From UHGV virus genome UHGV-0326727: a stretch of DNA of 64,000 bases; one strand, given 5' to 3'. Every line of letters begins with the position of its first letter. The stretch's first letter is position 1. Below, piece after piece: positions 2,940 to 63,221 of the stretch. Made by a program: the position numbers and the translations under genes. The notes under the pieces are model-generated. The model had not been told where the DNA came from, made no database searches, and was given only the letters and a program-made list of their open reading frames with translations. This DNA comes from a virus.

Positions 2940-3327
2940 AATGACCTCAAAGTTATATTAAATTTTGTATTACATTGAGTATAAAAATAAGCTATAACAC
3001 CTGACTTGTCAACAGATTTTATAGCTTATTTGGCAGATTTTTTATAAGGCTACTGCCATCCTTCCATACATTACCTTACCTTACCTCACCTGACCTGACC
3101 TGACCCTACCTAACATTACCGTGCCACACCTCACTTAAAAACCCTCTTAAAAGACTCTTAAGTGATGTAAGTCTCATTTTAATGTAGCTGAGACTAACTA
3201 CCCATACCTGACCGAACATTACTAGGCCTTACCAGACACTACAGAACAGGACAGCACCGCACCTTATTAAAAGACCCTGTTTAAAGACCTTTTAAAAAGG
3301 AGCCTCCGAAGAGGCTACCTAGTCAAC
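2940..3327. repeat. ORF-free modular repeat region (5-bp periodic ACC tract plus conserved blocks), copy 1
   Basis: cattaccttaccttacctcacctgacctgacctgaccctacc; shares a 42-bp identical block taagtctcattttaatgtagctgagactaactacccatacct and two 35-40 bp near-identical blocks with 4374-4786. Confidence 0.7.
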
Positions 3328-3768
3328 TTAGAAAGGTTTTCTACGTTGCTTGTTAATGTTAGCTTTCATAGCAGCTAAGTGGTTTTGCTGTTCAATCAGT
3401 CGTGAGCGTTCTTGATGGCTAAGTTCCATAGTGTTCACATTCTCAATAGCTTGAGTGGCTTGCTTTAAAGCTCGACCAATCTTACCAGACATTTTACGTT
3501 TTGCAATAGTTGCTTGATGTTTAGGTTCAACCACACGATAACCAACACCCATTGAAGCAACCAGATAAATCTTCTCTTCTTTAAGAAGCTTCTCAATAAA
3601 CTTCTCAAGTCGGTTTAGACGTGTAAGTGCATAAGCCTTCATTTCATCTTCGTACTTAACAATGTCGCCTTGATAAGTTGGCTTCATAATACCTAAGAAG
3701 GTGTCCATCTCAGAATGTGATACAGTGTCACCGTAACTAAACTTTGCTGCTAATGCTTTTGTATTCAT
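3328..3768 (-). CDS. hypothetical protein
   Basis: 146 aa ORF flanked by the two repeat regions. Confidence 0.4.
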   Translation of the reverse strand: MNTKALAAKFSYGDTVSHSEMDTFLGIMKPTYQGDIVKYEDEMKAYALTRLNRLEKFIEKLLKEEKIYLVASMGVGYRVVEPKHQATIAKRKMSGKIGRALKQATQAIENVNTMELSHQERSRLIEQQNHLAAMKANINKQRRKPF

Positions 3769-3770
3769 AA

Positions 3771-4786
<1,016 letters not shown>

Positions 4787-26734: not shown

Positions 26735-26769
26735 GTAAAACAATTAAATAATATTGGTGAGGTAACTAG

Positions 26770-28098: not shown

Positions 28099-28111
28099 AC
28101 AGATACTATAA

Positions 28112-28140
28112 GGGGACTGTAAAGGTTCCCTTTTTATTTT
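28112..28140 (+). terminator. rho-independent terminator
   Basis: ggggactgtaaaggttccc hairpin followed by TTTTTATTTT. Confidence 0.45.
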
Positions 28141-28149
28141 GGAGATAAC

Positions 28150-28665
28150 ATGTATCTGTCAAATCTGAAACGTTCGGTTGCAATGTCAGTTCTAAGACTG
28201 AGCTTTGAGGAACGTCAAGAGTTCATTGACTCCCACCAATACGACCCTTCTAACTCAAATCACATGATTCTCTGGAATCGTGACAGTACTCGTGAAAGAG
28301 CACTATTCCGCTATTACCCACATTACACCATAGATAATCTGTATGAATGCTTTGTTGTGAAGAACACCATTGCAGTGCTCAATAAGCTTTGTAGATACAA
28401 AGGTAACCAGTCCTTCACACTAGGCCACCATAAACCTGTTACAAAAGGTGGTGAGCATCACTGTGCGAACTGGTTTATCCAAACTAAAGCTGATAATCAG
28501 AAGCAAGGAGATAATCTTTTAAGCACCTCTAAGATGACCTATGAAGAGCAAGAGAAATATATCAAAAATAATATGCCAGATGTGCTTGACAACAACTATA
28601 CAGATTTGGCAATATCTCTCCTGTTGAAGTTCGAGACAGTTTATAGGGCAACTTACAATGGCTAA
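28150..28665 (+). CDS. HNH nuclease domain protein
   Basis: GHHKPVTKGGEHHCANWFIQTKADNQKQGDN resembles the HNH His/Asn motif. Confidence 0.4.
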   Translation: MYLSNLKRSVAMSVLRLSFEERQEFIDSHQYDPSNSNHMILWNRDSTRERALFRYYPHYTIDNLYECFVVKNTIAVLNKLCRYKGNQSFTLGHHKPVTKGGEHHCANWFIQTKADNQKQGDNLLSTSKMTYEEQEKYIKNNMPDVLDNNYTDLAISLLLKFETVYRATYNG

Positions 28666-28936
28666 AGGGAAGTGGGAGATTTTACCACTAGTTAGTGAGG
28701 GTGGTAATGGTTGTGAAATGTACATGATACGTGGTCATGTTCCAGAACCAATTGCACTTGAGATGATAAACAATTTTACAGATGGTTCTTACAAAGACTT
28801 AGGAGAACCAACTGTCAAGCAACAATGGGTTAAACCTGTACCAGACAGCACAGGTAACTGTAGTGTACTTTATCACGTTGTAGACCCTGCAAAATGCAAA
28901 TCTGCAATGGCAGTAACAAACGTAACTTTTGATTGA
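28658..28936 (+). CDS. hypothetical protein
   Basis: 92 aa ORF. Confidence 0.3.
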   Translation: MAKGKWEILPLVSEGGNGCEMYMIRGHVPEPIALEMINNFTDGSYKDLGEPTVKQQWVKPVPDSTGNCSVLYHVVDPAKCKSAMAVTNVTFD

Positions 28937-29829
28937 GAGAGAAAACCATGAAAACATCTATCCGTGTTACAGTTCATTCACCAACTAAAGGAACTCATGA
29001 AGAAGAGTTTAACATCATCCAATTCCCTTCTGGTGAGATTGGTGGAAACTTTTCACCAGAGTTTGTTGATTTTACTGCTTATGCAGCATCATCTATCAAC
29101 AATGTGATTATGATTGTAAAAGGTTATGATAAAGATACATTGTTTGCTGTGGCACTTGCTAAAGAGGCGGTGGACAACTTAGTACCTCATAAGTTTGCTA
29201 TGAAGACCATTATCTTTTACTATTTGCCAAATGCACGTTATGACCGTCACATGTTTAAAGGTGATGCAGCAGCTTTGAAAGTGTTTGCACAACAGGTTAA
29301 TGCAATGGGTTTTGATGCAGTCTGTGCAGTTGACCCTCACAGCTATGTACCAGATAACCTGTTTAACTGCTTCCAGAGTATTCCTCAAAAGGAAATTGCA
29401 GTCCACTATGCAAATGACCCACTAGTTGATTACTTAGTAGCCCCAGATGCAGGTGCTGCTAAGAAGATTGCAGAGACTGCTAAAGAGGTGGATAAACCAT
29501 ACATCACAATGTCTAAAGTGCGTAACCTTAAGACTGGTGAGATTACCGGTATGCGAATCCTTGATGATGTTGATTTGACAGATAAAACCGTTATGATTCT
29601 GGATGATATTTGTGATGGAGGTCGTACCTTTATAGAGGCAGCTAAACATCTTCGTGAAGCAGGTGCAAAACGTGTGGAACTTTATGTAACACATGGTATC
29701 TTCTCTAAAGGTGTTGAAAACCTTCTTGACAATGGTATTGACCACATCTACACTACAAACTCTTTAGGGGAAGCTAAAGACCGTGGTTTAACACATTATG
29801 GTCAAGTTACTGTAGCAAACCTTGATTAA
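28933..29829 (+). CDS. ribose-phosphate pyrophosphokinase (Prs) family protein
   Basis: PRPP/ribose-phosphate binding loop VMILDDICDGGRT and HGIFS motif. Confidence 0.65.
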   Translation: MREKTMKTSIRVTVHSPTKGTHEEEFNIIQFPSGEIGGNFSPEFVDFTAYAASSINNVIMIVKGYDKDTLFAVALAKEAVDNLVPHKFAMKTIIFYYLPNARYDRHMFKGDAAALKVFAQQVNAMGFDAVCAVDPHSYVPDNLFNCFQSIPQKEIAVHYANDPLVDYLVAPDAGAAKKIAETAKEVDKPYITMSKVRNLKTGEITGMRILDDVDLTDKTVMILDDICDGGRTFIEAAKHLREAGAKRVELYVTHGIFSKGVENLLDNGIDHIYTTNSLGEAKDRGLTHYGQVTVANLD

Positions 29830-29838
29830 AACTTTATA

Positions 29839-29860
29839 GGGGGCTTTTAAGCCCCATTTT
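29839..29860 (+). terminator. rho-independent terminator
   Basis: gggggcttttaagcccc hairpin followed by ATTTT. Confidence 0.5.
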
Positions 29861-29875
29861 GAGAGAGATTAAAAG

Positions 29876-31657
29876 ATGACTAAATCACTTTATGCAGTAC
29901 CAGCAGGTTTAAACGCAGATGCTTACAAATCTGGTCACATTTACCAGTATCCTAGTGCAACAGAATACTTGATGTTCAACCTGACACCACGTAGTGATAA
30001 ATGGTTTAACAGTCCTTTAGCAATTGACGGTGTAGTGGCTTTTGGTATTCAACGTTTTATTAAAGACTACTTAATAGACCACTGGAACGCCACCTTCTTC
30101 GAACGTGACAAAGAAGAAGCAATTGACGAAATCTTAGAAGTCATGAACGGTGTTCTGGGTAAAGATGCTATTGGTCGTGAACATTGGGAAGCACTTCACG
30201 ACTTAGGTTATCTACCAGTTGAAGTATACGCTGTAGAAGAAGGCACAGTTGTTCCTATGCGTGTACCAATGATTGTCTTCCAGAACACTGTTTCAGGTTT
30301 CCATTGGGTAGCGGGGTATCTGGAAGATGCTTTCTCTGCTGAGATTTGGAAGGCTTGTACCATTGCAACTATTGCATTGCACTACAAACGTATCTGTAAG
30401 AAGTGGTCTGACCTTACTTGTGATAACGACTTACATTTGCCTTATCAGTGTCATGACTTTGCTATGCGTGGTATGTCCGGCTTTACTGATGACGCATTTA
30501 ACGCTGTAGGACACTTAACCAGCTTTAAAGGAACTGATAGCTTCCCTGCTGTATATACAGCTAAACGCATCTATGGACAGTCCTACCCAATCTCTGATAT
30601 TGGTAGTTCTGTACCAGCCACTGAACACTCTGTAATGTGTGCAAACATTGCTTGGGAAGGTGGTAATGAGTTGATTGAAGAAGAAAGACGCTTTAAAGGT
30701 GAGTTACAAACTTTCCGTCGTTTCTTAACAGAAACTTACCCAACTGGTATTGCAAGTGTTGTTTCAGACACTTATAATTTCTGGAGAACTGTATCAGAAA
30801 TCTTACCAGCACTTCGTAAAGAGATTATGGAACGTGACGGCAAACTGGTAATTCGTCCTGACTCTGGTGACCCTGTACATATTGTCACAGGTTATAAAGC
30901 AATCCACTTAGAGTGTGCTAAAAAGGCTTATTACGAACACCTAAGCAAGCTGGAAGCCAGTGACACAATGCTGAATGCTGTTCTGAACATGAAGCTTGAA
31001 AACATCAACTATGGTATTGCTGGATGGCTATTGTCAGAAGGCTACGAAATGGTTGTTGACAGAGAAGACTTTGAAGTTGCTGATACAGTGCTGTTGAAAA
31101 ATGCTTATATGGTTGGCTCTGCAAACGTTGTAACACGTCCTGTAGCAGAGATTGATGGGGCTATTAAGACCCTGTATAACATCTTTGGAGGGACTATCAA
31201 CTCTAAAGGTTTTAAGGTACTGGATGAGCACATTGGCCTTATTTATGGTGACTCTATCACGTTGGAACGTGCAAACGAAATCCTGAAACGTTTGTATGAA
31301 ATGGGTTTTGCAAGCTCTAACGTAGTGTTTGGTGTAGGTTCTTATACTTACCAGTACATGACTCGTGACACCTTTGCATTTGCTGTCAAAGCAACTCTTG
31401 CAAGTATTGGTGGTAAAGAGATTATGCTTGCAAAAGACCCTAAAACAGATAGCGGTGTTAAGAAGTCTGCTTTTGGTGGTGTAGCACCCATGTGGGATGG
31501 TGATAAGCTGAAAGCTGTAGATGGCTATGGATTCCAGAGCTTTGCAGATGTGCTTGAACATCCAGCTTGTGCTTTACGTTTAGTCTTTAGTGACTCTGAG
31601 CAGTTCGGTTACACAACTCTTGGTGATATTCGAAATAATATTGACAAGCAACTTTAA
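29876..31657 (+). CDS. nicotinamide phosphoribosyltransferase (NAMPT) family protein
   Basis: 593 aa; FKGTDSFPAVYTA and SDTYNFW regions resemble NAMPT/NAPRTase type II phosphoribosyltransferases. Confidence 0.6.
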   Translation: MTKSLYAVPAGLNADAYKSGHIYQYPSATEYLMFNLTPRSDKWFNSPLAIDGVVAFGIQRFIKDYLIDHWNATFFERDKEEAIDEILEVMNGVLGKDAIGREHWEALHDLGYLPVEVYAVEEGTVVPMRVPMIVFQNTVSGFHWVAGYLEDAFSAEIWKACTIATIALHYKRICKKWSDLTCDNDLHLPYQCHDFAMRGMSGFTDDAFNAVGHLTSFKGTDSFPAVYTAKRIYGQSYPISDIGSSVPATEHSVMCANIAWEGGNELIEEERRFKGELQTFRRFLTETYPTGIASVVSDTYNFWRTVSEILPALRKEIMERDGKLVIRPDSGDPVHIVTGYKAIHLECAKKAYYEHLSKLEASDTMLNAVLNMKLENINYGIAGWLLSEGYEMVVDREDFEVADTVLLKNAYMVGSANVVTRPVAEIDGAIKTLYNIFGGTINSKGFKVLDEHIGLIYGDSITLERANEILKRLYEMGFASSNVVFGVGSYTYQYMTRDTFAFAVKATLASIGGKEIMLAKDPKTDSGVKKSAFGGVAPMWDGDKLKAVDGYGFQSFADVLEHPACALRLVFSDSEQFGYTTLGDIRNNIDKQL

Positions 31658-31670
31658 AAGTATATGATAA

Positions 31671-31694
31671 GAGGCTCCTACGGGAGCCTTTTTA
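31671..31694 (+). terminator. rho-independent terminator
   Basis: gaggctcctacgggagcctt hairpin followed by TTTT. Confidence 0.6.
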
Positions 31695-31710
31695 ATTTCT
31701 GGAGAAGATT

Positions 31711-32232: not shown

Positions 32233-34599
32233 ATGCGCATGGTAAATGACCACGCAGAAGTGATTAAGAGTTCAACTTCTTTAGAGACGTCTCAAGCACA
32301 GATTACAATGACACCTGAAATGTTCAGCCTTTTGAGTTCTGGTGTATATACCTTTAAAGAAAGGGCAGTTATTCGTGAACTGTCATGTAACGCAGTAGAT
32401 GCTCAGAAAGAAGCTGGAAAAGAGAACATCCCGTTCCATGTGCATTTACCTACTCGTTTTGAGCCTTACTTTGAAGTTCGTGATTTTGGAACTGGATTGA
32501 CTCATGATAAAGTTATGAGTTTGTATCTAAATTACGGGGCTTCTACGAAGAATGACTCTAATGACTACATTGGTGCAATGGGTATCGGCTCAAAATCCCC
32601 ATTTGCAATTGCTCAGTCATTCACAGTATCTAGCTATGTTGATGGTGTTGTCAATAAGTACTCTGTTTACCTTGAGAATGGTATCCCTCAAGTAACTAAG
32701 CTGACCACTAACCCAACAAAAGAACCTAATGGTTTAGCTGTACGTGTAGCAGTTGCTGACCACCGTATTTCAAAGTTCTTTGAAGAAGCTGGTCACGTAT
32801 ACTCATACTTTGCTGTAAAACCAGAAAGTAATATCGAGTACGACGATATATTAGCAGACATGAATGTCATTGCCCGTGAAGAAGGTGTTTATGATGCCAT
32901 GATTCATAAGCAAAGCTGGCGCTCTAGTGGTAACAGGACAGAGTTTAATGTGGTGATGGGTAACATCGCCTACCCTGTTAACATGGAAGCACTACTTGGT
33001 GATGATTTCTTCAAAGTCTTGCCAGAGTTTTTCCGTAGGAGCGTAGACCTTGTAAACATCTATATGCCTATTGGTTCAGTTGCTATTGCAGCTTCTCGTG
33101 AAGCATTGCAGATGAATGATACAACAAAAAATGTTATCATTGAGGCTACTAAAAAGATAACTGAAGCAATTACAAAGGATGTTATCAAGAAAGTTAATAG
33201 CCAACCTACACTCATGGATGCTGCACAGGCTTATGCTGAGTTACGTTTAAACTCACGAGAGATGTTTAATGCTGTGTGTCCAAAACTAGAGTGGGGAGGC
33301 GTTAAGCTTGATTCTTTGGAAGAAGAATTGCTAAACATTCGTCGTGGAATTATCTACGCAGAAGACGGCTCAGTTATCTATGAACGTGACGGCAAAGGTA
33401 ATATTAAGGTTGATAGGAACGGGAACAACATCCCTAAAGTAGATTATCTTTATAATCCAGTTGCTTATGTTAAGTTTAACTCTTTAGAGAGTAAGATTCG
33501 TGCAACAGCGCTTTCCTACACTCAAGAGGCAAGTATGTTCAATATCTTTGGCGCAATGCGTAAAAGTCAAATTGAGCAGTTTTTGTTTGTTATAAATGAC
33601 CGTCGCAATAAAAATGGTACTGAGAAGACTGTAGGACGCAATCAGATTCTGCGTGGTGCATGTCGAGACTATGCCAGTGAATCCAGTCTGTTTCACAGAT
33701 ACAATGGTATTGTCTTTGTATTCTCGACTGAAAAAGAGCTAGATGATTTAATCAATCTTCACAAACTTGATAAAAGCTTGTTAAAGATTGTGAAGATGTC
33801 TGATAAGGAACATCATTATCAGCGTAAAGAAGCTGTAAGAGGTGTTGTAAAACTTTGGAAAGCTGTTCCAGCAGAAGGTGTAGCTTCATACAAAGAGGTG
33901 TCAGAAGACTTAGATACGATTGAAGAGCCTCAGCTTTATATTAAGGCAGTAGGCGACACAGTTGATGGCGAATGTTTTTGCTCATCTCCAGAAGATGTAG
34001 CTAAGTCAGTTGCCAATGTCATTGGAAAGACAGTATATGTTTTCCGAAAAGCAAATTGGAAAAAGATACCAGAAGACTGGATTGAAGTAGATGAGAAGCT
34101 CTTGAACGACAGCTTAACTGATGTTCACTGGATTAATCATAATAGGTATATGACACGTATCTATATGAATGGTGTCCTTGACCTTACAAGCAGTTGGATT
34201 ATTGCCAGAAACTTTACGTTCAATAACAGGAAGATTTCTCGTGGCTATTGCTATTCACGAGACACAAACAAAACTATCTTCTTAGAAGGTAATGAAGATG
34301 CTGTTGAGGCAATGTTTGGTAAAATCCAATACGTTGCTGCACCGTTTGCATACACTTACACTGTTAGTCGGTTGCAAACTTTGAAAGAATGCCTTGACAA
34401 TGACACAAAGTTGTACAAGAAAATTAAGAAAGCTGGTGACCGTATGGTTATTAAGGTGACAAACTATCTTTTAAAAAGAAAACAAGAAAACTTCTTGCTT
34501 TCTCATTTAGATTGGAATAAAGTGTCACCCATCGAAGTAAGTAAGTTCTTAGGCTTTGATGTGAAGTGTGTTCCAGAAGGGACTACAATTTACGATTAA
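32233..34599 (+). CDS. rIIA: rIIA-like protein with N-terminal GHKL-type ATPase domain
   Basis: 788 aa; Bergerat-fold motifs RELSCNAVDA (N box), DFGTGLT (G1), GAMGIGSKSPF (G2); size and position fit rIIA. Confidence 0.55.
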   Translation: MRMVNDHAEVIKSSTSLETSQAQITMTPEMFSLLSSGVYTFKERAVIRELSCNAVDAQKEAGKENIPFHVHLPTRFEPYFEVRDFGTGLTHDKVMSLYLNYGASTKNDSNDYIGAMGIGSKSPFAIAQSFTVSSYVDGVVNKYSVYLENGIPQVTKLTTNPTKEPNGLAVRVAVADHRISKFFEEAGHVYSYFAVKPESNIEYDDILADMNVIAREEGVYDAMIHKQSWRSSGNRTEFNVVMGNIAYPVNMEALLGDDFFKVLPEFFRRSVDLVNIYMPIGSVAIAASREALQMNDTTKNVIIEATKKITEAITKDVIKKVNSQPTLMDAAQAYAELRLNSREMFNAVCPKLEWGGVKLDSLEEELLNIRRGIIYAEDGSVIYERDGKGNIKVDRNGNNIPKVDYLYNPVAYVKFNSLESKIRATALSYTQEASMFNIFGAMRKSQIEQFLFVINDRRNKNGTEKTVGRNQILRGACRDYASESSLFHRYNGIVFVFSTEKELDDLINLHKLDKSLLKIVKMSDKEHHYQRKEAVRGVVKLWKAVPAEGVASYKEVSEDLDTIEEPQLYIKAVGDTVDGECFCSSPEDVAKSVANVIGKTVYVFRKANWKKIPEDWIEVDEKLLNDSLTDVHWINHNRYMTRIYMNGVLDLTSSWIIARNFTFNNRKISRGYCYSRDTNKTIFLEGNEDAVEAMFGKIQYVAAPFAYTYTVSRLQTLKECLDNDTKLYKKIKKAGDRMVIKVTNYLLKRKQENFLLSHLDWNKVSPIEVSKFLGFDVKCVPEGTTIYD

Positions 34600-34678: not shown

Positions 34679-35788
34679 ATGACTACTAAAACTAAAGCAC
34701 AGATTGACGCAGAAATTTACAAACTGGTTAAAGAAGGTAAGCTGACTAAAACAGCTATTGCACAGAAGTTCAATACTTCAACCCGTTCAGTTGGTCGTGC
34801 TGTAGAGCGTCATGAAGCAACCTTAAAAGGTAAGAAAAAGGTAGCTTCTAAACCAGCTAAGAAGACTTTGAAGCAAGTTGCTAAGTCAGTTAAAAAGAAA
34901 GCTGGCAAACCAGTTGAAAAGGTTGTTAAAGAGGCTGTACAGAAAGCTCCAGTAAATAAACTACACGAAGCTATGCAGAATGGTGACCGAATTGAGTATA
35001 TGATTACTGGCGATTCTGTTATCATGACTTTCGGTGCAGATTCTGAAATCGTTGAGTCTACCCATCCGAACTACAAAGAAATCGTAATGGCTGTTGTAGG
35101 TGGTGAGTACAAGAAAGCTTTCGAACTGATGAACATTCGTAAGTCTATCGAAAACTTCACTCAGGGTGCTATCACAATCAAAGGTGATAAGTTATTCTAC
35201 GGTGCTGTTGAGATGCGTTCTACTCTGGTTGACCGTATCCTTCACATGATGAAGACTGGTGATAAAGGTTTTGAACGACTTGTAATGTTCTTCGAAAAAC
35301 TGATGGAAAACCCATCTAAAGACTCTGTAGAACAACTTTGGGGATTCGTATCTCATCTTGATGTTGAAATTGATGAAGAAGGTTACATCATTGGTTGGAA
35401 GAAAGTCTCTACTCGTGAAGGCAAGCTGGTTGACTCTCACACCTACAAAGTACCTAATGATTTGGGTAACATTGTAGAGATGCCACGTTGGATGGTTGAT
35501 AACAACCGTAACGTAACTTGCTCTCAAGGTCTTCATGTTGGTGCTTGGGATTATGTTCGTTGCTTCTCAGGTGATACCATCCTGAAGGTTCGTGTCCATC
35601 CACGAGATGTTGTATCTGTTCCAACTGATTACAACGATATGAAGATGCGTTCCTCTCGTTATGAAGTTGCAGCAATCGTTGATAATCAACGTAAAGTGCT
35701 GAAAGCATGGGATGGTAAGACTGAAGCTTTGCATGTCATCGTTGGCACTGCTGGTGAACTCATCTCTCAACGTAAACGTGAAATCTAA
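34679..35788 (+). CDS. rIIB: rIIB-like protein
   Basis: 369 aa immediately downstream of the rIIA-like gene; call is by position and size only. Confidence 0.4.
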   Translation: MTTKTKAQIDAEIYKLVKEGKLTKTAIAQKFNTSTRSVGRAVERHEATLKGKKKVASKPAKKTLKQVAKSVKKKAGKPVEKVVKEAVQKAPVNKLHEAMQNGDRIEYMITGDSVIMTFGADSEIVESTHPNYKEIVMAVVGGEYKKAFELMNIRKSIENFTQGAITIKGDKLFYGAVEMRSTLVDRILHMMKTGDKGFERLVMFFEKLMENPSKDSVEQLWGFVSHLDVEIDEEGYIIGWKKVSTREGKLVDSHTYKVPNDLGNIVEMPRWMVDNNRNVTCSQGLHVGAWDYVRCFSGDTILKVRVHPRDVVSVPTDYNDMKMRSSRYEVAAIVDNQRKVLKAWDGKTEALHVIVGTAGELISQRKREI

Positions 35789-39443: not shown

Positions 39444-40229
39444 ATGGGTATTGTAAAAATCATCAATGGGGATATCTTCTCCGCATTTGATAAAGGTAAG
39501 TTTGATATTATTGGTCACGGTTGCAACTGTATGAATTTAATGGGTGCAGGTATCGCTGATAAGATTTCTAAACTTTACCCAAAAGCATATGAGACCGATA
39601 CAGAAGTTTATCTGTATGCAGGTGGTATAGGCCACAAACCCTGTGAAAATTTACTAGGCAATTTCTCTGTAGCACGTTTAAAACAAGGACGTATAGCTAA
39701 CCTTTACACTCAGCTTAAGACTGGTAAAGATGCCCGATACAGTGCTTTAGAGTCATCTTTGAAACAGCTTAACAGATACTGTGAAGTTAATCAGTTGAAG
39801 AAAGTTGGGCTACCTATGATTGGTGCAGGTATCGGTGGGCTAGACCCTCAAGCCGTCACCGTTATCATTAATCAGGTGATGAAGAGTGTAGATGTGTATC
39901 TGTATGTCTACGAAGGAGAGATGTACCACAAGTTACGCTCAGGTTGGAAGAACTACTGTGAACCAGAATACTTTGCAGGTGTAGTAGTGTTCACTGATGA
40001 TGCAGTTACCCTCTTCAGACGAAGAAAAGGTAAGATACATCAAAGTAACCCTCCGGTTGAAAAGATGTCTCTAAGTAACGCTCTAGTTACCCACCTGTCG
40101 AAGAGCAATCACAGAATTGCAGTAACATTTGGCAGTGATGCAGATACATATATCTATGCAAGAACTGATGAGGATGTTGAGGAAATTTTCTCTTCACCGG
40201 AAGTAACCTTCTTAGACGCAAAGAACTAA
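39444..40229 (+). CDS. macro-domain-like protein (putative ADP-ribose binding/processing)
   Basis: N-terminus IVKIINGDIFSAF...FDIIGHGCNCMNLMGAGIADKI parallels the macro-domain GDIT...VNAAN..LxGGGGVxxAI signature. Confidence 0.45.
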   Translation: MGIVKIINGDIFSAFDKGKFDIIGHGCNCMNLMGAGIADKISKLYPKAYETDTEVYLYAGGIGHKPCENLLGNFSVARLKQGRIANLYTQLKTGKDARYSALESSLKQLNRYCEVNQLKKVGLPMIGAGIGGLDPQAVTVIINQVMKSVDVYLYVYEGEMYHKLRSGWKNYCEPEYFAGVVVFTDDAVTLFRRRKGKIHQSNPPVEKMSLSNALVTHLSKSNHRIAVTFGSDADTYIYARTDEDVEEIFSSPEVTFLDAKN

Positions 40230-50228: not shown

Positions 50229-50762
50229 CTATAATTGTAGGTTGCATTCTTTACTTACCTCTTCAAGTTTAACCTCAGAGTCCTTAAGTCGTTTCTTATG
50301 AACTCTAAACCTCATTAGTGAGATGATGATACCAACTAAAGGGACAGCATACAAGTACCAAACATCATATACCTTTGCAGTAATCTGTGTAATGGTCAAA
50401 TCTTGAGCTATAGAACTGATTGCTGATACTGCCAGTAATGTTGCTAAGAAAAATGCCAGTACCATTACTGTACTTAAACAACCTCTGGCATGGTGTTCAT
50501 GCTTAATGCACTTATTCTTTTCGTCAACAACCCTGTTGTAGTCGTTTGTAAAGTCTCTGTAGAAAGCTTTCAAGTATTCTTTATTGTAGCCTTCAAAGCA
50601 ACCTGTACCGTACCAATAATCACCACCAAAATGTGCTATGATACCAGTATCTCCGTTTGGTTTAGTTACTCTCAAAGATGTGTGATGACGAGTGTCTTGA
50701 TAGTCTATTTTGTATCTTTCTTCGTAAATCATTTTCCAATCCCTCTCAATCGTTTGTTCCAC
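50229..50762 (-). CDS. membrane protein
   Basis: 177 aa; two hydrophobic segments (LSTVMVLAFFLATLLAVSAISSIA, YLYAVPLVGIIISLM). Confidence 0.4.
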   Translation of the reverse strand: MEQTIERDWKMIYEERYKIDYQDTRHHTSLRVTKPNGDTGIIAHFGGDYWYGTGCFEGYNKEYLKAFYRDFTNDYNRVVDEKNKCIKHEHHARGCLSTVMVLAFFLATLLAVSAISSIAQDLTITQITAKVYDVWYLYAVPLVGIIISLMRFRVHKKRLKDSEVKLEEVSKECNLQL

Positions 50763-50947
50763 TCAAGGTCAACAAGTCTTTGTAGGACTTTACCTCTAGG
50801 TGTTACACCTTTTAAGTCTGCATCGTAACAATGGTAAAAATCACCTTCAGCGTGTCTACCATAGCATTTTCTGATGTTCTGACTTCTGCGATATTGTTCT
50901 AATAATGATACCTTATAGTAATCTTCAACTGTAGTTAACTTTTTCAT
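50729..50947 (-). CDS. hypothetical small protein
   Basis: 72 aa ORF. Confidence 0.3.
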   Translation of the reverse strand: MKKLTTVEDYYKVSLLEQYRRSQNIRKCYGRHAEGDFYHCYDADLKGVTPRGKVLQRLVDLEWNKRLRGIGK

Positions 50948-51489
50948 TCTTTCACCATAGCATTTCTGAACTGACGTTGAGTTTCTCTTGTAATTTCGTC
51001 TGGAGTAAACCCTGCTTTCAGCATATCTCTGAAAAGAACTTCTAAGTGATTCTTTTCAATAATGTAAATTGCATTCTGCACAGATGTTTTAAGTTCCTTC
51101 AGGTCACTGCTAATTTCTTCGCACTTGTTGACAATCTCTGTATCAACTTTCTTAAAGACTGGCATGGTATATCTACGACCACCATTAGCAGCATCCATGA
51201 AAAATTTAAAAGATTCCTCAGAGTCCTTTAAAGCAATCCCGATAAAGTCCTTGTAAGCACCTGTGAAAGCTAAAGACTCAATCTCAGCAGTTGAGTAAAC
51301 AGTTCCTGCACACAGTCTTGCAGAGGTACTAAATGTGTAGCTTTGTGTTATGTCAAAGTCTAAGTTCTTCAGTGGTCGAAAATAAACTGTGCCAGTATGT
51401 GAGACATGTGTTACAACAGCCTCCACACTCTTTGAAGGGTTCTGTTTAACATACAGAATAATTTTATCGTGTTCTTTCACTTTAGGCAT
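50944..51489 (-). CDS. hypothetical protein
   Basis: 181 aa ORF. Confidence 0.4.
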   Translation of the reverse strand: MPKVKEHDKIILYVKQNPSKSVEAVVTHVSHTGTVYFRPLKNLDFDITQSYTFSTSARLCAGTVYSTAEIESLAFTGAYKDFIGIALKDSEESFKFFMDAANGGRRYTMPVFKKVDTEIVNKCEEISSDLKELKTSVQNAIYIIEKNHLEVLFRDMLKAGFTPDEITRETQRQFRNAMVKE

Positions 51490-55207: not shown

Positions 55208-55575
55208 TTCTTTTTAGCCTCTAAACGTGCGTTTAATCTAAAATAGCCTTTATGTTGTGGAGACACATCACCAACAACGATACCTTCAACTTTATAACCT
55301 TTACCGATTACATACTGGATATCCATAAGAAATGTACCAAGTCCTACAATGTGGAACATTGGATATAATAACTTATCTGAATCTGGGAGATTAATATCTG
55401 GGTTGTAGGTAGGTTGTTTACTAGTAGGTGTAATATCTTCTTCAGGCCATTTACTTAGTCTCCATGTCAAAGGTGTTGGGATAACATCATTAAGATTGTA
55501 CCTCCCACCATTCTCCACGGAATGGATATAGGATTGTAGGAAGCAATAAAAGTCTTTTGCACTCTTAGCTTTCAT
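55204..55575 (-). CDS. hypothetical protein, paralog of the N-terminal domain of 54074-55207
   Basis: Shared features MKAK..DF..F, LLY, FMD(L/I)QY(A/V)I..GK, LNA(K/R)L. Confidence 0.45.
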   Translation of the reverse strand: MKAKSAKDFYCFLQSYIHSVENGGRYNLNDVIPTPLTWRLSKWPEEDITPTSKQPTYNPDINLPDSDKLLYPMFHIVGLGTFLMDIQYVIGKGYKVEGIVVGDVSPQHKGYFRLNARLEAKKK

Positions 55576-55622
55576 TAAATATCCTTATAAATAGATAAAG
55601 GGGCATTAGCCCCTGTTTACAC

Positions 55623-56213
55623 TTAAGCTTTGGTCTTAAGTAGGTTCTTAAGTTTTTTGAGATTCATGCTCTCGTCAAACTTAAAACCAAATCCATTGAC
55701 ATAATCAATGAACTCGGATTTCTTACTAAGTGATAGCGCGTAACTCATATCAAAGTTATTACTTGTTTCTGCGTCTGGACTAGAGTTCACATCAAATGAA
55801 ATTTCTGTAGGCTCTTGCTTGCTACTTCTCATATTATCAATTAATAGGCATGTATAGTTCGCTGGATAGAAGTTTGCACTGCCATCAACATACCCATACT
55901 TATTGTTGTGAATAAGGTTTGAAAATACCTTAAGAAATGTTTCTGAGTCGTGGCATACAAGTTTGAATTGGCTGCATTCTCCAAGAGCCACTAAAGAATA
56001 AGGGCTTTCACTATCAATGTCGTAGTTTGGATTTGATGTTGTAACCGTCACACGCATCAAGTTATTAGCAATAGTCTTCTGCTTGAAAGAATTTGGGACA
56101 TAGTGAAGACCTCTATCACACTGATTAACTAACTCTTTAAGTAGGTCGTTTGCATATGGTGAATTAATTGATACAGAGCCATCACTATTATAGTTAAAAC
56201 TTACTGTTAACAT
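55623..56213 (-). CDS. hypothetical protein
   Basis: 196 aa ORF. Confidence 0.4.
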   Translation of the reverse strand: MLTVSFNYNSDGSVSINSPYANDLLKELVNQCDRGLHYVPNSFKQKTIANNLMRVTVTTSNPNYDIDSESPYSLVALGECSQFKLVCHDSETFLKVFSNLIHNNKYGYVDGSANFYPANYTCLLIDNMRSSKQEPTEISFDVNSSPDAETSNNFDMSYALSLSKKSEFIDYVNGFGFKFDESMNLKKLKNLLKTKA

Positions 56214-63047: not shown

Positions 63048-63120
63048 GTGGCCTTATCATAAATGGTAATGACCCATGCTGTGAACATGGTCTATACGGG
63101 TTCAAATCCCGTAGGTCACC
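63048..63120 (+). tRNA. tRNA-His (anticodon GTG)
   Basis: Acceptor gtggcct/aggtcac, D-stem tcat/atga, anticodon stem ccatg/catgg perfect with loop ctGTGaa, discriminator C; CCA encoded. Confidence 0.75.
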
Positions 63121-63129
63121 CCAATTTAT

Positions 63130-63202
63130 AGTCCAAGTAGCTTATATGGTTAAAGCGCGTGTCTGAAAAACATGAGAAGAGGGTTCAAATCCCACTGGAC
63201 TA
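63130..63202 (+). tRNA. tRNA-Phe (anticodon GAA), slightly irregular acceptor/T junction
   Basis: D-stem gctt/aagc, anticodon stem cgtgt/acatg with loop ctGAAaa, T-loop TTCAAAT; acceptor agtccaa/ctggact with one unpaired base; CCA encoded. Confidence 0.6.
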
Positions 63203-63221
63203 CCAATTTCAAAGGTGCTTA

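Follow-up and report, generated by a model that had tools for sequence, protein, structure and literature searches.

Two adjacent genes within a 64,000-nt stretch of viral DNA from the genome UHGV-0326727 (hereafter the window) very probably form the operon for the NAD+ reconstitution pathway NARP1 in a Felixounavirus. The first, adps (28948..29829, + strand), encodes a Prs-like protein of 293 aa, a predicted ADP-ribose pyrophosphate (ADPR-PP) synthetase, and the second, namat (29876..31657, + strand), encodes a NAMPT-like protein of 593 aa, a predicted nicotinamide ADP-ribose transferase. The spacer between them is 46 nt long, and an earlier note on this DNA, which had placed a Prs-like gene adjoining and upstream of a NAMPT-like gene, was right about both reading frames. 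This adjacency is the defining context of NARP1; 97% of Adps-clade genes have a Namat neighbor, and the window pair follows this rule, with both of its genes on one strand. The identification draws on an examination of the open reading frames (ORFs) of the window and on Pfam, PHROG and NCBIfam profile searches of both proteins. It is carried by gene presence and order, by orthology and synteny with the operon of Escherichia phage Bas63, by conserved catalytic and specificity residues, by protein fold and by purifying selection.

By analogy with published orthologs and homologs, which supply both the chemistry and the anti-defense phenotype, the pathway would begin when a host NADase effector (SIR2, TIR, SEFIR and similar) splits NAD+ into ADP-ribose and nicotinamide during infection. 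Adps, a remodeled phosphoribosyl pyrophosphate (PRPP) synthetase fold, would then move the beta-gamma pyrophosphate of ATP onto the 1'' hydroxyl of ADP-ribose to yield ADPR-PP. Namat, which combines a NAMPT fold with an adenine-binding clamp, would swap this pyrophosphate for nicotinamide and thereby produce NAD+, bypassing nicotinamide mononucleotide (NMN) and the host salvage enzymes. With its NAD+ pool restored, the cell would allow the phage to replicate despite an NAD+-depleting defense.

NARP1 is a major phage counter to NAD+-depleting immunity (Thoeris, DSR1/2, SIR2-HerA, SEFIR), and the locus is a clean example of it. The system is already known, and since its type operon is itself from a Felixounavirus, the locus contributes nothing new. 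Standard pipelines still label the pair as ‘ribose-phosphate pyrophosphokinase’ and ‘nicotinate/nicotinamide phosphoribosyltransferase’; correct automatic annotation is possible through the Namat signature GS[YF]TYQ[YF]xTRD, the Adps signature DD[IL]CDxGxTF and the adjacency of the two genes.

Source phage and the Bas63 operon

The window is a segment of a Felixounavirus genome. A megablast search with the region retrieves 259 phage records, nearly all of them Felixounavirus phages of Escherichia, Salmonella and Shigella, and a 25-kb stretch of the window is 96.8% identical to Escherichia phage PHB11. Over its whole length the window is collinear with positions 24275-86748 of Escherichia phage JohannRWettstein (Bas63, MZ501086), at 87-96% nucleotide identity. 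Judged by sequence and position, adps and namat are the syntenic orthologs of Bas63 g79-g80, the operon where NARP1 was first found. Adps shares 81% amino acid identity over 293 aa with Bas63 gp79, and Namat shares 98% with gp80. The pairs are of equal lengths, have the same flanks and lie between nrdG and rIIA in both phages. The Bas63 operon (bas63_0079-0080; bioRxiv 10.1101/2024.02.11.579819) is thus like that of the window in genus, position, gene order and spacing, and also in an 85-aa insert within Namat. The C-terminal catalytic half of Adps is near-identical in the two phages (96% over codons 181-293), while the first ∼300 nt of adps diverge.

The function of the Bas63 operon has been established in infected cells. 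Deletion of g79-80 renders the phage sensitive to SIR2-HerA, and NAD+ depletion is milder in infections by wild-type Bas63 than in infections by the g79-80 mutant (bioRxiv 10.1101/2024.02.11.579819). In the same work, ADPR-PP was detected only in wild-type Bas63 infections of defense-carrying cells, and the NARP1 effect was independent of host pncC and nadR (bioRxiv 10.1101/2024.02.11.579819). In a separate genome-wide knockout study, single deletion of g79 or g80 caused a plating drop of 1e4-1e6 on Sir2-HerA cells that complementation rescued; the g79 and g80 deletions had weaker effects on the Ec86 retron and hhe in that study. The earlier note had proposed a phage NAD+ reconstitution module that counters NAD+-depleting immunity, and this proposal is supported by the orthology to Bas63 g79-g80 and by the adenine-binding clamp of Namat.

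Specificity determinants of Adps and Namat

Adps matches PHROG 619 ‘ribose-phosphate pyrophosphokinase’ (E 3.9e-99) as well as the Pfam families Pribosyltran and Pribosyl_synth. In BLASTP comparisons it scores 119 bits against Adps of the Vibrio phage ICP1, 100 bits against Adps of the Bacillus phage SPbetaL1 and 64 bits against Escherichia coli Prs. The ICP1 and SPbetaL1 enzymes have been shown enzymatically to make ADPR-PP (PMC13586617). The NCBIfam equivalog models for Prs score far under their cut-offs (NF002095, 105.9 against 296; NF002320, 92.8 against 297), and the broad subfamily model TIGR01251 alone passes, at 123 bits against a cut-off of 113. The comparison between Prs and ADPR-PP synthetase that the earlier note had proposed as a check therefore places Adps nearer to the ICP1 and SPbetaL1 enzymes, with the specific Prs models below threshold.

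The pyrophosphate (PP) loop of Adps, DDICDGGRTF, occupies residues 219-228 (29602..29631, + strand). It overlaps the PRPP-binding loop VMILDDICDGGRT singled out in the earlier note, which is indeed present as residues 215-227 (29590-29628). A consensus derived in the present analysis from 90 Adps homologs that are <60% identical to the window protein reads DD[IL]CD[GA]G[RG]TF, with Cys in 89/90 and Phe in 89/90, and the corresponding loop of E. coli Prs reads DDMIDTGGTL. In ICP1 Adps, Cys215 and Phe221 touch the ATP donor (PMC13586617), and their window counterparts are Cys222 and Phe228. Seven further residues, R97, H131, D167, K190, D219, D220 and D223, correspond to ICP1 R87, H121, D161, K185, D212, D213 and D216 and are invariant in the 90 distant homologs. 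K185, the counterpart of window K190, is the catalytic lysine of the ICP1 enzyme, and its replacement in K185A abolishes activity (PMC13586617). The ICP1 pair (NrsA/NrsB; PMC13586617) therefore matches the window in the catalytic Lys, the acceptor residues and the donor-site Cys and Phe of Adps, although the two Adps proteins are only 31-40% identical and the ICP1 PP loop reads CDGAAS where that of the window reads CDGGRT. The SPbetaL1 loop reads DDLSSFGGTF in place of DDICDGGRTF.

The architecture of Adps also departs from that of E. coli Prs. No Pfam Pribosyltran_N match is found in Adps, in the alignment a stretch of 16 N-terminal residues of E. coli Prs has no counterpart in any of the four Adps proteins, and the C-terminus of the window protein lies ∼16 residues short of that of Prs. 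Adps thus appears to lack the canonical PRPS regulatory elements and the C-terminal alpha11-alpha12. A search of the PDB by sequence found no solved Adps structure, the best match being Sulfolobus Prs 4TWB, so the comparison depends on aligning Adps with its ICP1 counterpart and on the residue numbering of the published structure. Taken together, the first protein is best described as an Adps rather than a Prs, with a use of ADP-ribose that is expected from its homologs.

Namat matches PHROG 448 ‘nicotinamide phosphoribosyl transferase’ (E 7e-202), Pfam NAPRTase and NCBIfam NF006629 (467 bits against a cut-off of 405); its score for Pfam NAMPT_N, 24.8 bits, falls just below the 25-bit cut-off. 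Crystal structures of SPbetaL1 Namat (9W5X, 9W5W) define a two-part adenine-binding ‘selectivity clamp’ (PMC12774641). For the selectivity-clamp helix (SCH), the consensus is GS-X-Phi-X-Phi-X-Phi-TRD, in which positions 3 and 7 are aromatic (PMC12774641). The selectivity-clamp loop (SCL) has Arg, Lys or Tyr as its third residue; with Lys or Tyr there, the fourth residue stacks on adenine, as in Bas63 (PMC12774641). Both parts are recognizable in the window protein. The SCH, GSYTYQYMTRD (residues 488-498; 31337..31369, + strand), fits the consensus, and the SCL, S40-D41-K42-W43 (29993..30004, + strand), aligns with T38-S39-R40-V41 of SPbetaL1 and has Lys as its third residue and Trp as its fourth. 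All of these residues are identical to those of Bas63. ICP1 Namat, likewise encoded adjacent to Adps, carries GSYTYQYVTRD, and SPbetaL1 shares the SCH signature but uses Arg40 directly in its SCL in place of the Lys-Trp of the window. Across 50 homologs and the window Namat, position 3 of the SCH is Y/F in 51/51, and position 7 is Y/F in 43/51 and Met in the other 8. The solved canonical NAMPTs are without the clamp aromatics at this site, which reads GAQTYQRNTRD in Haemophilus ducreyi NadV (HdNadV) and GGALLQKVDRD in Xanthomonas Nampt.

The catalytic core of Namat is kept. SPbetaL1 residues D13, Y15, F189, R192, D215, H245, R306 and D308 correspond to D15, Y17, F195, R198, D221, H251, R327 and D329 of the window protein, and G458 and D459 are also conserved among the residues that serve catalysis or the nicotinamide and ribose-phosphate sites. 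Two positions of this set carry conservative replacements relative to SPbetaL1, with A196 in place of Ser190 and S460 in place of Ala362; at the second of them ICP1 Namat has Ser as well. An AlphaFold2 model built from a 51-sequence alignment (pLDDT 94, pTM 0.92) finds its best solved matches in SPbetaL1 9W5X and 9W5W (target-normalized TM-score 0.95), with HdNadV and mammalian NAMPT ranking lower. The structural comparison of NAMPT with Namat that had also been proposed earlier accordingly comes out closest to the SPbetaL1 Namat crystal structures, with the clamp signature in place. SPbetaL1 NARP1 (PMC12774641) and the window share the order of the two genes and the fold at 46% identity in Namat and 30-35% in Adps. 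The second protein is then most readily classified as a Namat, not a canonical NAMPT, and would by analogy with its homologs prefer ADPR-PP.

An alpha/beta subdomain of ∼85 aa (residues ∼340-424; 30893..31147, + strand) sets this Namat apart from those of SPbetaL1 and ICP1, in which it is absent. The proteins of the window, Bas63 and other Ounavirinae are ∼100 aa longer than the SPbetaL1 or ICP1 enzymes; SPbetaL1 Namat, at 491 aa, is without both this insert and a second one of ∼15 aa. The 85-aa insert is confidently folded in the model, and across the 51 aligned Namat sequences the length of the insert at this site ranges from 8 to 93 aa. It has no Pfam match and no structural neighbor was found for it; the word ‘insertion’ is nowhere used in the Namat structure paper (PMC12774641). 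As a weaker possibility, the insert of Ounavirinae Namat may be a regulatory or partner-binding addition. Homologs of Adps and Namat also occur on multi-megabase contigs of Cronobacter, Klebsiella, Superficieibacter, Phytobacter and Kosakonia, where the Namat proteins carry the signature and are without the 85-aa insert. These enterobacterial copies are consistent with reported bacterial or prophage-borne NARP1.

The earlier note held that sequence could not tell a canonical Prs and NAMPT pair from an Adps and Namat pair. This caveat is outdated, because orthology to a characterized operon and published structure-derived signatures now discriminate between the two, and the choice resolves to Adps and Namat.

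Points against NARP1 and alternative readings

Several features weigh against the NARP1 assignment. The residues that contact the adenine of ADP-ribose in ICP1 Adps, Phe18 and Phe92 (PMC13586617), are not conserved in the window protein, nor in that of Bas63. A five-sequence alignment pairs Phe18 with His17 and Phe92 with Met102, next to Phe103, while a larger Adps alignment shifts the Phe18 column and sets His17 opposite an ICP1 Glu; the pairing of Phe18 is uncertain because the two disagree. The residues at these sites are the same in the functional gp79 of Bas63, and SPbetaL1 is also without an equivalent of Phe92. In addition, Felixounavirus Namat carries the 85-aa insert, and Namat keeps a PRPP-to-NMN side activity in vitro (PMC12774641), so some NMN production is possible. 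For Felixounaviruses, support comes from the genetics and metabolomics of Bas63, and the enzymology is carried over from homologs 30-47% identical to the window proteins, the purified-enzyme work having used those of SPbetaL1, ICP1, DyoEdafos and Paenibacillus. Finally, the N-terminal third of Adps differs from that of Bas63, with 68% amino acid identity over codons 1-100 and synonymous sites that are saturated.

This last difference is confined to a sharply bounded segment. The first ∼300 nt of adps (28948-29250) are 60-69% identical to Bas63, and the flanks are 90-100% identical. Divergence begins abruptly at the start codon, and the 90 nt upstream of it are 100% identical. The window Adps is itself 99% identical to the database representative P0001, whose cluster comprises 791 member sequences. 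The N-terminal domain of adps is an old recombined (mosaic) allele, not part of a decaying gene, and it is the commoner allele in public data. Compared with Bas63, Namat has a ratio of nonsynonymous to synonymous substitution rates (dN/dS) of 0.03, and the C-terminal part of Adps, beyond this segment, has one of 0.036; both genes are therefore held by purifying selection.

A canonical PRPP synthetase acting with a NAMPT would turn PRPP into NMN, leave completion of NAD+ to host NadR/PncC or to another phage enzyme, and amount to a salvage boost of the NARP2 type. Database names and general profiles fit such a pair, in that TIGR01251 and NF006629, the latter named ‘nicotinate phosphoribosyltransferase’, both exceed their cut-offs, and the GenBank annotations of relatives agree. 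However, the Prs equivalog models fall far below threshold for Adps, its PP loop is of the Adps type, and the adenine clamp of Namat is missing from canonical NAMPTs. The homologous enzymes, moreover, are already shown to prefer ADP-ribose (Adps) and ADPR-PP (Namat), and Bas63 overcomes SIR2-HerA even in a pncC nadR double mutant, with ADPR-PP found in the infected cells. NARP2 itself (NadV NAMPT with NMNAT, Vibrio phage KVP40) and canonical NAMPT/NadV share the NAMPT fold and catalytic core with Namat; NARP2 proceeds through NMN with an NMNAT partner, whereas the window transferase has a Prs-like partner and the adenine clamp. No nucleotidyltransferase or Nudix domain occurs among the operon neighbors, a search for NMNAT that was not exhaustive over the whole window, and no NMNAT gene adjoins adps-namat. 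NARP2 is rejected on this absence of an adjacent NMNAT and on the presence of the clamp, and a canonical pair is highly improbable. NARP3, which joins a PnuC-like transporter to a NadR-like enzyme, is likewise rejected, as its proteins belong to different families.

The two genes might instead be auxiliary metabolic genes that serve phage replication generally by increasing NAD+. It sits among genes of nucleotide metabolism, with nrdA, nrdB, nrdD and nrdG upstream, and the region is kept in most Felixounavirus records (239/259 cover ≥80% of it by megablast). Yet NARP1 requires free ADP-ribose, and ADPR-PP appeared in Bas63 infections only when an NADase defense was present. In published screens the genes lie in segments scored as non-essential on laboratory hosts and are critical on Sir2-HerA hosts, and the neighboring gp77 and rIIA/rIIB are likewise reported counter-defense genes. 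A purely metabolic role is consequently very unlikely beside the counter-defense role of NARP1.

Extended forms of NARP1 have also been described. In NARP1-AP, a Macro-domain ADPR-1''-phosphate phosphatase (Adpp) is encoded inside the operon and counters aRES (bioRxiv 10.64898/2026.01.28.702374), and the other published variant adds a RyR-domain glycosidase. Neither a Macro nor a RyR domain turned up when the nearest two ORFs upstream and two downstream of the operon were searched with Pfam and PHROG; the only matches were to DUFs and proteins of unknown function. By the published limit of two genes, both NARP1-AP and the RyDEP-extended operon are ruled out at the locus, which is for the same reason classed as a plain two-gene NARP1.

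A Macro-domain protein (PF01661) of 261 aa is nonetheless encoded 7.8 kb downstream (39444-40229, + strand), and it is the ortholog of bas63_0095 ‘putative phosphatase’. The Macro domain lies at its N-terminus (Pfam, 32.3 bits against a cut-off of 22) and is followed by an extra, unassigned C-terminal ∼100 aa. As a stand-in for the Adpp of Vibrio phage Gary, the Macro ‘phosphatase’ of Vibrio phage K460, encoded between adps and namat, was compared with it; the two share 28% identity over the N-terminal 150 aa of the window protein, with a pairwise E of 1e-12. The best solved matches of the window protein are TARG1/OARD1 and coronavirus Mac1, with yeast Poa1p a weak one (E 0.01-0.02, over the N-terminal 50 aa). 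From its sequence, the protein may be an unlinked Adpp or a de-ADP-ribosylase; the latter role is equally plausible because, among NCBIfam models, the DarG glycohydrolase matches best, albeit at 47.7 bits against a cut-off of 250. In comparison with the Adps-Macro Adpp-Namat operon of phage Gary (bioRxiv 10.64898/2026.01.28.702374), the core enzymes are shared and a related Macro family is present in the window, but its gene lies outside the operon and its product is longer at the C-terminus.

These matches raise the idea of a split NARP1-AP in Felixounaviruses, in which the unlinked Macro protein would turn aRES-made ADPR-1''-phosphate into ADP-ribose for Adps and Namat. The Pfam Macro domain and the resemblance to the in-operon phosphatase of K460 speak for it. 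Because the published survey confined its count of Macro genes to a distance of two genes from NARP1, phages with an unlinked copy would have been scored as lacking the extension. Against it stand the distance of the gene, which has a different transcription context, and the matches of the protein, which are best to TARG1/OARD1 and Mac1 among solved structures, weak to Poa1p, and best to DarG among NCBIfam models. The same Macro family also occurs in ∼2800 phage records, T4-like phages included. Such a division of labor is accordingly doubtful, though less so than either of the two preceding alternatives, and the two-gene NARP1 operon is retained as the description of the locus.

Gene calls, transcription signals and neighboring loci

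The mechanical ORF of adps runs from 28933 to 29829 and begins with a TTG that overlaps the TGA stop codon of the preceding ORF. A ribosome-binding-like GAGAGAGA lies upstream of the ATG at 28948, and the same start is annotated in the Bas63 ortholog. The product is likely to be the one of 293 aa, since the sequence directly 5' of this ATG is GAGAGAGAAAACC and the start agrees with that of Bas63.

The earlier note had assigned each gene a terminator of its own, and this holds for namat and less clearly for adps. Downstream of namat lies a strong intrinsic terminator (31669..31700, + strand; hairpin 31669-31692) with a 10-bp stem, a 4-nt loop and a T tract. It has a folding energy of -17.2 kcal/mol (z -3.4) and is identical in Bas63. 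Between the genes, a GC hairpin (29840..29855, + strand) folds as GGGGCU-UUUA-AGCCCC, a 6-bp stem followed by AUUUUG, and its stem is kept in Bas63. Its energy ranges from -11.4 kcal/mol (centroid) to -12.7 kcal/mol (minimum free energy) with z -2.2, and 5/200 shuffled sequences fold equally well. The terminator scan made no call at 29840-29855. As just four U residues follow the stem and the scan passed it over, the hairpin is treated as a weak terminator; it could tentatively also be an RNA-stability element.

The surroundings of the operon are rich in genes with reported roles against bacterial defenses. Upstream, the ORF at 28150-28665 (+ strand) encodes a protein of 171 aa that is 95% identical to Bas63 gp77. 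Bas63 gp77 was reported in a knockout screen as a counter to the Ec67 retron and is named GIY-YIG in that paper; the sole family hint for the window ortholog is a weak HNH PHROG match (E 2e-4), together with an HH...N...N motif seen by eye. A terminator-like hairpin (28110-28132) precedes this gene, which may therefore be co-transcribed with a 92-aa ORF (28658-28936) and with NARP1. Just 3' of NARP1, 32233-34599 and 34679-35788 (+ strand) encode the orthologs of Bas63 g84 and g85 (rIIA and rIIB), which are reported as co-essential counters of the qatABCD defense. With the orthologs of gp77 and rIIA/rIIB on its flanks, NARP1 seems to lie within a counter-defense cluster.

Small indels flank the block from nrdG to NARP1. 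Neither bas63_0072, between gene 71 and nrdG, nor bas63_0081, immediately 3' of namat, has an ortholog in the window, and the indel junctions fall at 26745-26752 and 31713-31710 of the window against 50274-50551 and 55510-55857 of Bas63.

Other parts of the window differ from Bas63 as well. A 1.2-kb segment (3233-4467), largely unmatched in Bas63, is an accessory insertion that contains two - strand ORFs (3328-3768, 146 aa; 3771-4373, 200 aa), neither with a Pfam match. An ORF of 181 aa (50944-51489, - strand), also with no Pfam match, lies in an unmatched segment of 0.5 kb. The tRNA-Arg(acg) gene at 61880-61955 falls in a segment unmatched in Bas63 (61879-62213), and no gene corresponding to it is listed in the annotation table of Bas63. 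The cluster of 24 tRNA genes to which it belongs (58867-63205, + strand), at the 3' end of the window, is in line with the Bas63 tRNA cluster.

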